Below are positions 2,212 to 2,938 of a stretch of DNA of 7,494 nucleotides, piece after piece. Position 1 is the stretch's first letter, and every line of letters starts with the position of its first letter. The notes below the pieces were generated by a model. That model was not told where the DNA came from, searched no databases, and saw only the letters and a program-made list of their open reading frames with translations. Both the position numbers and the translations under genes were made by a program. This DNA comes from a virus (Duplodnaviria; Heunggongvirae; Uroviricota; Caudoviricetes): the IMG/VR virus record IMGVR_UViG_2534681674_000036, positions 1 to 7,494 of that record; one strand, written 5' to 3'.

Positions 2212-2708
2212 AACAAATGACACTAATTGAGATGGATGGTTTTCTGAAAGGTGAATGCATCCCACGAGATTTAAAGGTTAACGAAACAAACGCTGAATAT
2301 CTTGTCCGTAAGTTCGGTGAACTTGAATCAAAACTAGAAACGGCGTTGCGGGAGTGTCGTTCTGCTGGAATCACGATTGATAACCTTGAGGCCAAGTGCG
2401 CGGCGCTGGTAGCGGAGAGTGCGGGGATGAAGAAGTTCTGCAAAGACGCTGCATTCGATGCCGATTACGAAGCAGAGCTAGGTATGGAGCGTGGTGGATT
2501 CAGTGATGCGCTTAACGAAATCAAAACCCCAGCCACCGATGCTTTCCTGGCTGAAGTCCGGGCTAAGGCGTTTGATGACCTTTGCGCGGCGTTCGTTAAG
2601 CACGCGTCGGTGTCCGGGCTGGACGATGGCGACTGCGTTACGGTGAAAGAGGCGACTGACGCTCTGCTGCATTGTGCGGAACAGCTTCACGAGGGAGTGC
2701 ATTCATGA
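2208..2708 (+). CDS. Hypothetical phage protein (about 166 aa); start ambiguous (GTG 2190, ATG 2208 or ATG 2217)
   Basis: Long ORF in the operon. ATG 2208 is favoured by the ATGA overlap with the upstream small ORF. The stop TGA 2706-2708 overlaps the lar ATG 2705. Confidence 0.6.
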
Positions 2709-2938
2709 GCAACCTACTACCATGTCCATTCTGTGGCGGCGCAGCGCACGTTGCCAGCGAAGCAGATCACCCTGAATATGGCTCTGGCGGTCGATTCTAT
2801 TTCGTTCGATGCGGTACGTGTCGCGCTCAATCTGGTAGCAAATATGCAGCGCCTGGAAATGACTGCGCGATTTTTTATTCAGAGGTTAGAGCAGAGTGGA
2901 ATCAGCGAGCAAAGGAGGCAACCAGTGAGCGAAATTGA
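2705..2938 (+). CDS. lar: Lar-family restriction alleviation protein (zinc-ribbon)
   Basis: N-terminal LPCPFCGG motif followed by a second Cys pair (CGTCRAQ). The size (77 aa) and prophage early-region context fit Lar/RalR-type proteins. The family call is from motif memory. Confidence 0.7.
   Translation: MSNLLPCPFCGGAAHVASEADHPEYGSGGRFYFVRCGTCRAQSGSKYAAPGNDCAIFYSEVRAEWNQRAKEATSERN

Follow-up and report, generated by a model that had tools for sequence, protein, structure and literature searches.

A Lar-family gene in the early-left (exo-xis) operon of a lambdoid prophage

The question posed by this locus is what a short open reading frame, joined at both ends to its neighbors in a prophage operon, encodes, and whether the name carried by its family, that of restriction alleviation, describes what its product does. 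The DNA analyzed is a viral stretch of 7,494 nucleotides, the whole of which is referred to here as the window. The open reading frame is one of the known, ordinary accessory genes that a lambdoid prophage carries in its early-left (exo-xis) operon, and the initial annotation, made from the DNA alone, had read it as a Lar-type restriction alleviation gene marking an anti-defense locus.

The prophage and its early-left operon

The window takes in the left arm of a lambda-like prophage, bounded at its end by the host gene ybhC. Its xis and int products share 99-100% protein identity with their counterparts in phage HK106, and host ybhC comes next, which places the prophage at the lambda attachment site. 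The genes are arranged as follows.

373-879, plus strand: ssb
888-1436, plus strand: 3'-5' exonuclease gene
1453-1749, plus strand: abc2, anti-RecBCD (PF11043, E = 4.7e-61)
Between abc2 and the DUF2737 gene, plus strand: gene for a DUF5405 protein
Between the DUF5405 and PHROG-614 genes, plus strand: gene for a DUF2737 protein
2208-2708, plus strand: gene for a PHROG-614 protein of unknown function (PHROG match, RefSeq start, and segment identities)
2705-2938, plus strand: Lar-family gene, 77 amino acids
2925-3521, plus strand: Ead/Ea22-like gene (PF13935 matched from residue 2 at profile position 1)
3523-4071, plus strand: gene for a DUF551 protein
4064-4348, plus strand: gene for a small protein, ASCH in RefSeq naming
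4408-4719, plus strand: gene for a 103-amino acid protein (PHROG 3680)
Within 4810-7494, plus strand: xis, int, and then ybhC

Several of these genes merit a remark of their own. The exonuclease gene (888-1436) is intact in the window and is split by an IS3-family insertion in the prophage of Escherichia coli 2013C-4974, which is otherwise 99.9% identical to the window. Despite its RefSeq name, the product of 4064-4348 matched no family at E ≤ 0.01 in the Pfam scan, and its counterpart in a Vibrio phage gave an ASCH match at E = 6e-8. The 103-residue protein (4408-4719) carries a CxxC...CxxC pattern with a weak, non-significant likeness to the ClpX zinc-binding domain (E = 0.05) and may be a second small zinc protein of the exo-xis region.

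Coordinates and translation signals

Read from the sequence, the Lar-family open reading frame begins at ATG 2705-2707 and stops at TGA 2936-2938, specifying 77 amino acids. The gene is tied to both of its neighbors by overlapping start and stop codons, with the following signals at the two junctions.

2691-2697, plus strand: GAGGGAG, a Shine-Dalgarno-like sequence 7 nt upstream of the Lar-family ATG (sequence)
2705-2708, plus strand: ATGA start/stop overlap with the upstream gene (sequence; junction kept in most related loci)
2912-2918, plus strand: AAGGAGG, the Shine-Dalgarno sequence of the Ea22-like gene, inside the Lar coding sequence (sequence)

At the first junction, the TGA of the upstream open reading frame (2706-2708) overlaps the Lar-family ATG, an arrangement consistent with translational coupling to the upstream gene; in most related loci the match to the upstream gene ends at the Lar start. 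At the second, the Ea22-like frame opens with GTG 2925-2927, 6 nt after AAGGAGG, and the two genes overlap by 14 nt (2925-2938). A consensus scan of 2000-3700 detected neither a sigma-70-like promoter nor an intrinsic terminator on either strand, and the Lar-family gene is therefore taken to be expressed on the long early-left transcript. The initial annotation had given the same coordinates and the same two overlaps, and had noted the CPFCGG motif and the embedding of the gene in an operon, all of which agree with the sequence and with the scan for promoters and terminators.

A genuine gene and the start of its downstream neighbor

Between 2733 and 2938 two frames are open, and public annotations have used both. 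RefSeq/PGAP calls the Lar open reading frame but puts the start of the Ea22-like gene at ATG 2844, and the GenBank record of HK106 omits the Lar open reading frame and begins the downstream gene at the GTG equivalent to window position 2733. On this basis it could be held that the open reading frame is not a gene at all and that the stretch belongs to the Ea22-like protein, the N terminus of which would be extended in the overlapping frame from a start at 2733 or 2844. Both in the window and in close relatives the +1 frame stays open through 2709-3521, and it is the frame adopted by the HK106 record and, in part, by PGAP.

Homologous DNA gathered from IMG/VR and GTDB argues strongly against such an extension. 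Across 204 ungapped bases in 22 distinct sequences, pN/pS was 0.08 in the Lar frame and 2.6 (the +1 frame) and 2.2 in the other two, the Lar-frame substitutions falling mostly at third codon positions (e.g. 2/2/21). Among diverged homologs (76-91% nucleotide identity over the compared stretch), extra stops interrupt the +1 frame within the Lar open reading frame in 14 of 15 distinct sequences, counted beyond the stop of the upstream gene itself, and none occurs in the Lar frame. From the pN/pS values and the pattern of stops it follows that the Lar-family open reading frame is, with near certainty, a real protein-coding gene under purifying selection; the Pfam match of its product, at E = 1.4e-9, is also above chance. 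That the stretch serves instead as part of an Ea22-like protein is scarcely credible. A programmed fusion of Lar to Ea22 was considered as well, as was a long Ea22 N terminus in the +1 frame, and both are rejected on the stops and substitution pattern of the diverged homologs.

The same comparison bears on where the Ea22-like gene begins. The Ead_Ea22 Pfam domain starts at the residue right after GTG 2925, a codon preceded by the strong AAGGAGG, and in diverged homologs AAGGAG occupies the same place. There the Lar gene has 74 codons and its TGA overlaps the equivalent downstream ATG (as CAATGA), behind AAGGAG, whereas in the lineage of the window a 1-nt indel has made the Lar frame 11 nt (three codons) longer and the downstream start is GTG. 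This junction was compared at about 4210-4230 in a set of homologous loci (L096-L111) against 2920-2938 of the window, and the 14-nt overlap is a derived state. On this comparative evidence the Ea22-like gene is judged to start at GTG 2925, as the initial annotation had it, and the two public annotations to start too far upstream; the earlier choice is better supported than either of them by the comparative data and by the start of the Pfam domain.

In one further locus (IMGVR_UViG_2541047683_000004), Lar codon 19 has changed from GAA to TAA at 4055-4057, leaving a pseudogene. Loss of the Lar gene is thus tolerated in at least one lineage.

Family membership

The window protein matched PF14354 (Lar_restr_allev) at 38.5 bits (E = 1.4e-9), the gathering score being 28.6, over profile positions 2-58 of 58, and this was the sole family returned by the Pfam scan. 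It also matched PHROG 599, the "Lar-like restriction alleviation protein" group, at E = 1.4e-12. When a profile of the subfamily of close homologs was aligned by hhalign with RalR/Lar of the Rac prophage, the probability was 96.3% and E = 1.5e-9; BLASTP of the single protein against Rac Lar/RalR of K-12 gave 26% identity over 42 amino acids (E = 8e-5). The search against Lar-family models that the initial annotation had proposed as a check therefore came out positive, and membership of the Lar family (PF14354) is secure. The naming, too, had been anticipated, as the identical protein in RefSeq, WP_071532516.1, is called "Lar family restriction alleviation protein."

The relationship to the founding member is nevertheless a distant one. 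TIGR03655 (anti_R_Lar), the curated NCBIfam subfamily model, failed at 29.4 bits against a cut-off of 39.6, which RalR itself passes with 55.3, and the RalR equivalog model NF007260, against which RalR scores 166 bits, returned no match for the window protein. By these scores the protein is a distant Lar relative, lying within PF14354 and outside the narrower TIGR03655 set. An exhaustive search with HMMER (E ≤ 0.001) yielded 1523 relatives; 147 of the best 150 listed were aligned together with the query, giving 148 sequences, and PF14354 was matched by all 148 of these best relatives. Judged from the alignment, the window protein belongs to a longer subfamily that is distinguished by two insertions and a fifth conserved cysteine.

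Conserved residues and predicted fold

The principal residues lie as follows, with conservation given for the alignment of the 148 best of 1523 relatives.

2723-2734, plus strand: first zinc knuckle, C7-P-F-C10, within PCPFCGG (C7 and C10 invariant, 148/148)
2810-2821, plus strand: second zinc knuckle, C36-G-T-C39 (C36 and C39 invariant, 148/148)
2864-2866, plus strand: codon of Cys54, the fifth cysteine (present in 144/148)
2897-2908, plus strand: W65-N66-Q67-R68, the end of the C-terminal helix (aligned to RalR W50-N51-K52-R53)

The cysteines C7, C10, C36, and C39 align with C9, C12, C30, and C33 of RalR, and the four are taken, from this pattern, to form a zinc-binding site. In the same 148 best relatives, P8, F9, G11, C54, R62, N66, and R68 are nearly invariant, and the C-terminal motif is kept as W65 in 148, N66 in 140, and R68 in 146; position 67 is variable (Thr in 57, Arg in 46, Gln in 9, Asn in 9, and Lys in 8). 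Relative to RalR there are two insertions, of 9 and 7-9 amino acids depending on the alignment, around SEADHPEYGSGG and PGNDCAIFY. The second is subfamily-specific, is lacking in Rac Lar/RalR, and houses Cys54.

An AlphaFold model (pLDDT 87.3) contains strands at 14-20, 30-36, and 46-48 and a helix at 55-66, so that the predicted fold is a single domain in which a three-stranded sheet is followed by a C-terminal helix carrying the W-N-x-R motif. Among predicted viral structures, the best matches were other Lar-annotated proteins (best TM 0.83). Sequence searches of the PDB with the protein and with the 148-sequence profile gave nothing significant, the best values being E = 1.1 (MsrB) and 0.01-0.06 (unrelated proteins), and Foldseek searches of the PDB with two models (pLDDT 80.7 and 87.3) likewise gave nothing significant (best E 0.18-0.3). 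These null searches indicate a family with no solved relative. The Foldseek matches themselves were generic zinc-binding domains (NrdR, RPA12, the Yippee domain of Mis18, and the CULT domain of cereblon) and offered no mechanistic lead.

Distribution and gene neighborhood

Of 5426 complete E. coli genomes, 47 carry the gene, in every case on the chromosome. Phages including HK106, ST104, and UAB_Phi20 encode proteins with 96-100% identity to that of the window, mostly unannotated; the gene is unannotated in ST104 and also in HK106, where the protein is 100% identical. Relatives with about 50% identity occur in about 100 Vibrio phages.

In related enterobacterial phages the Lar gene is preceded, with few exceptions, by the sequence for the conserved last 58 amino acids of the PHROG-614 protein. 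The gene for the latter (2208-2708) is internally mosaic: its N-terminal 60 and C-terminal 58 residues are conserved across phages, and the part between them is highly variable, at 22-52% identity. The C terminus is 93-100% identical in most loci whose Lar protein has 96% identity or more, and the C-terminal domain and Lar travel together in most loci. The gene downstream of Lar varies by locus; Ea22 variants are among those found there, often followed by DUF551 and ASCH genes.

No gene recurs as a conserved partner when about 90 distant loci are compared, and most neighbors carry no Pfam domain. As a separate observation on distant loci (L006-L148), about 5 of 173 immediate neighbors have a DNA methyltransferase domain and 6 of 173 are a second Lar-family gene, that is, a tandem paralog. 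The proteins themselves are variable beyond the Lar domain, with a C-terminal extension of at least 40 amino acids in 108 of 162 relatives. These extensions are heterogeneous; the largest similarity cluster among them holds 12 of the 108 and has no Pfam name, and DUF551 is found in 2 of the 148 best of 1523 relatives.

One such fusion is NVP1205O_64 of Vibrio phage 1.205.O (3001-3402 of its locus), in which a Lar domain at residues 3-66 is joined to DUF551 at 68-133, with ASCH two genes downstream. In the window, Lar, Ea22, DUF551, and ASCH are separate genes, and in HK106 Ea22 and DUF551 are fused; DUF551 has the look of a promiscuous module that is attached to the C terminus of exo-xis proteins. 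The Vibrio fusions (133 amino acids in NVP1205O_64) are about 50% identical to the window protein across the Lar domain, have the insertions of the long subfamily, and likewise lie near an ASCH gene. They differ in that DUF551 is part of the same polypeptide, whereas in the window it is a separate protein encoded two genes downstream.

Comparison with Rac Lar and the toxin proposal

The closest point of reference is Lar/RalR of the Rac prophage (64 amino acids, b1348), reported to alleviate restriction (King and Murray 1995, as cited in later work) and the sole Lar protein for which this has been shown. The two proteins have in common the PF14354 domain, the PCPFCG...CxxC four-cysteine site, and the C-terminal W-N-x-R helix. 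Both are small stand-alone proteins encoded at the distal end of an early-left operon, between recombination genes and xis/int: Rac ralR between recET and xis/int, and the window gene between the Rad52-like/ssb/exo/abc2 genes and xis/int. They differ in overall sequence (26% identity) and in the two insertions, Cys54, R62, and a Gln in place of K52 that mark the window protein, which also falls below the TIGR03655 cut-off, is not matched by NF007260, and has no RalA antisense sRNA. C54 and R62, nearly invariant in the long clade, are both absent from RalR; in view of these residues and of the two insertions, the specificity of the long clade may differ from that of RalR.

RalR has since been reinterpreted as a Mg/Ca-dependent non-specific DNase toxin that is controlled by the sRNA RalA, and the same work contests an anti-restriction role for Lar itself (Guo et al. 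2014). Extended to the window, this proposal would make the gene the toxin of a type I toxin-antitoxin pair, a view that draws on the homology to RalR and on the report that RalR cleaves DNA without specificity and is toxic when over-produced (Guo et al. 2014). The features that define RalR in this capacity are hard to find in the window. Beyond the failure of NF007260, a RalA-like sRNA is absent, with nothing relevant in Rfam and no meaningful alignment of RalA on the antisense strand; no promoter or terminator consensus lies on either strand of 2000-3700; and the gene, to judge from its overlaps, is coupled in translation to its neighbors within a long operon. Furthermore, at four of the six RalR positions whose alteration reduces toxicity (14, 37, 39, 49, 51, and 52) the window protein has a different residue: G12 at C14, S43 at T37, E64 at R49, and Q67 at K52, only Y47 and N66 being kept. 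Q67 is the very K52Q change that inactivates RalR, and Lys occupies this column in only 8 of the 148 best of 1523 relatives. From sequence, then, the toxin reading fits the window poorly, no toxin-antitoxin features being present, and it is very unlikely to be correct.

A possible role against type I restriction

The reading that accounts best for the locus as a whole, and which is about as likely as not, is that of a Lar-family gene of the early operon acting on type IA restriction-modification systems. The gene would, to judge from its position, be among the first phage products to be made after infection or induction. Its product would bind a host nucleic acid enzyme and push the bound enzyme toward methylating unmodified phage or recombinant DNA; the likeliest target would be the HsdM2S methyltransferase core of a type IA enzyme such as EcoKI. 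The outcome would be alleviated restriction and enhanced modification, the genetic behavior of Lar and of the unrelated Ral protein of lambda. This proposal is made because of the homology to Rac prophage Lar and the position in the operon; that the window protein itself alleviates type I restriction is, on such grounds, plausible, though a little short of probable. As an incidental observation, the window holds one EcoKI site, in the host ybhC part, compared with 1.1 expected, which is uninformative.

Lambda Ral provides the functional model, being likewise a small early-left protein whose effect on type IA systems is to alleviate restriction and to enhance modification, in its case by stimulating the methyltransferase to methylate unmodified DNA. 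It has no sequence relationship to the window protein, and lambda ral adjoins N, outside the exo-xis region. The DNA mimics Ocr and ArdA are also early-expressed factors of mobile elements directed against type I restriction-modification, but they are acidic proteins that block the enzyme, with no zinc ribbon and no homology to the window protein. Their inhibition is not confined to restriction and extends to modification, which Lar and Ral enhance.

Three considerations weaken the anti-restriction inference: the distance of the window protein from Lar together with the conserved residues peculiar to its clade, the dispute raised by Guo et al. (2014), and the behavior of phage Bas63. In a PhageMaP study, the Lar homolog of Bas63 was conditionally important on hosts lacking an intact type I system, a host pattern that is a poor fit to type I restriction-modification. 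The immediate neighbors of family members, with no consistent partner among them and a DNA methyltransferase domain in about 5 of 173, also speak against the proposal. Literature searches found no published test of any member of the long subfamily.

In another reading, a Lar-fold zinc ribbon has been put to a different job. In one form of it the protein would be a small binding module that counters another host system, for instance type IV restriction; in a second it would act with the neighboring exo-xis proteins Ea22, DUF551, and ASCH in a lysis-lysogeny or host-takeover program and not on type I restriction-modification. The failure of TIGR03655, the subfamily-specific C54, R62, and two insertions, and the heterogeneous extensions of at least 40 residues in 108 of 162 relatives are all in keeping with such a change of role. 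So are the Lar-DUF551 fusion with ASCH in Vibrio phage 1.205.O beside the order Lar, Ea22, DUF551, and ASCH in the window, the importance of the Bas63 homolog on hosts without intact type I restriction-modification, and reports that lambdoid exo-xis genes affect lysogenization and induction. Set against these are the statistically solid homology, by hhalign, to the one tested member, an operon position that matches that of Rac, the rarity of the DUF551 fusion (2 of the 148 best of 1523 relatives), and the want of positive evidence for any particular alternative target. On balance a different job is a tenable but not a favored explanation. The more specific notion that the long Lar subfamily is functionally distinct from Rac Lar, perhaps serving exo-xis proteins as a zinc-ribbon targeting module against a host factor other than type I restriction-modification (type IV restriction, for example, at which the PhageMaP pattern of Bas63 hints), is suggested by the insertions, by Cys54 and R62, and by the frequent use of the domain as an N-terminal module, including the DUF551 fusions; it is somewhat unlikely.

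The initial annotation had taken the gene to mark the region as an anti-defense locus, and the presence of abc2 nearby goes some way toward this. The description nevertheless goes too far: neither the Lar protein nor six neighboring proteins found a match in PADLOC-DB, and abc2 is the only other recognizable counter-defense gene. The remaining neighbors are exo-xis genes of unknown function, and in lambda and the Stx phages such genes have been linked to the lysis-lysogeny decision.

Concluding remarks

The finding is a correct reading of a gene already annotated in public E. coli data. As a discovery it matters little, since the identical protein is already named and the family is represented in Pfam, NCBIfam, and PHROGs. 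For annotation, two things are gained. The comparison of homologs settles where the Ea22-like gene begins, PGAP and the HK106 record having both extended that gene through the Lar open reading frame, and HK106 and ST104 are shown to carry an unannotated Lar gene.

The wider interest lies in the name. Widely propagated, it goes back to one genetic study, the subject of which has 26% identity to the window protein and a function that has since been disputed. HK106, which is cultivable and encodes the identical protein, offers a simple system for testing type I restriction alleviation by the Lar family. The novelty that remains resides in the long Lar clade with its fifth cysteine, which is possibly doing something other than what its name says; were that clade indeed distinct in function, the label "restriction alleviation protein" borne by thousands of phage genes would be wrong for it.
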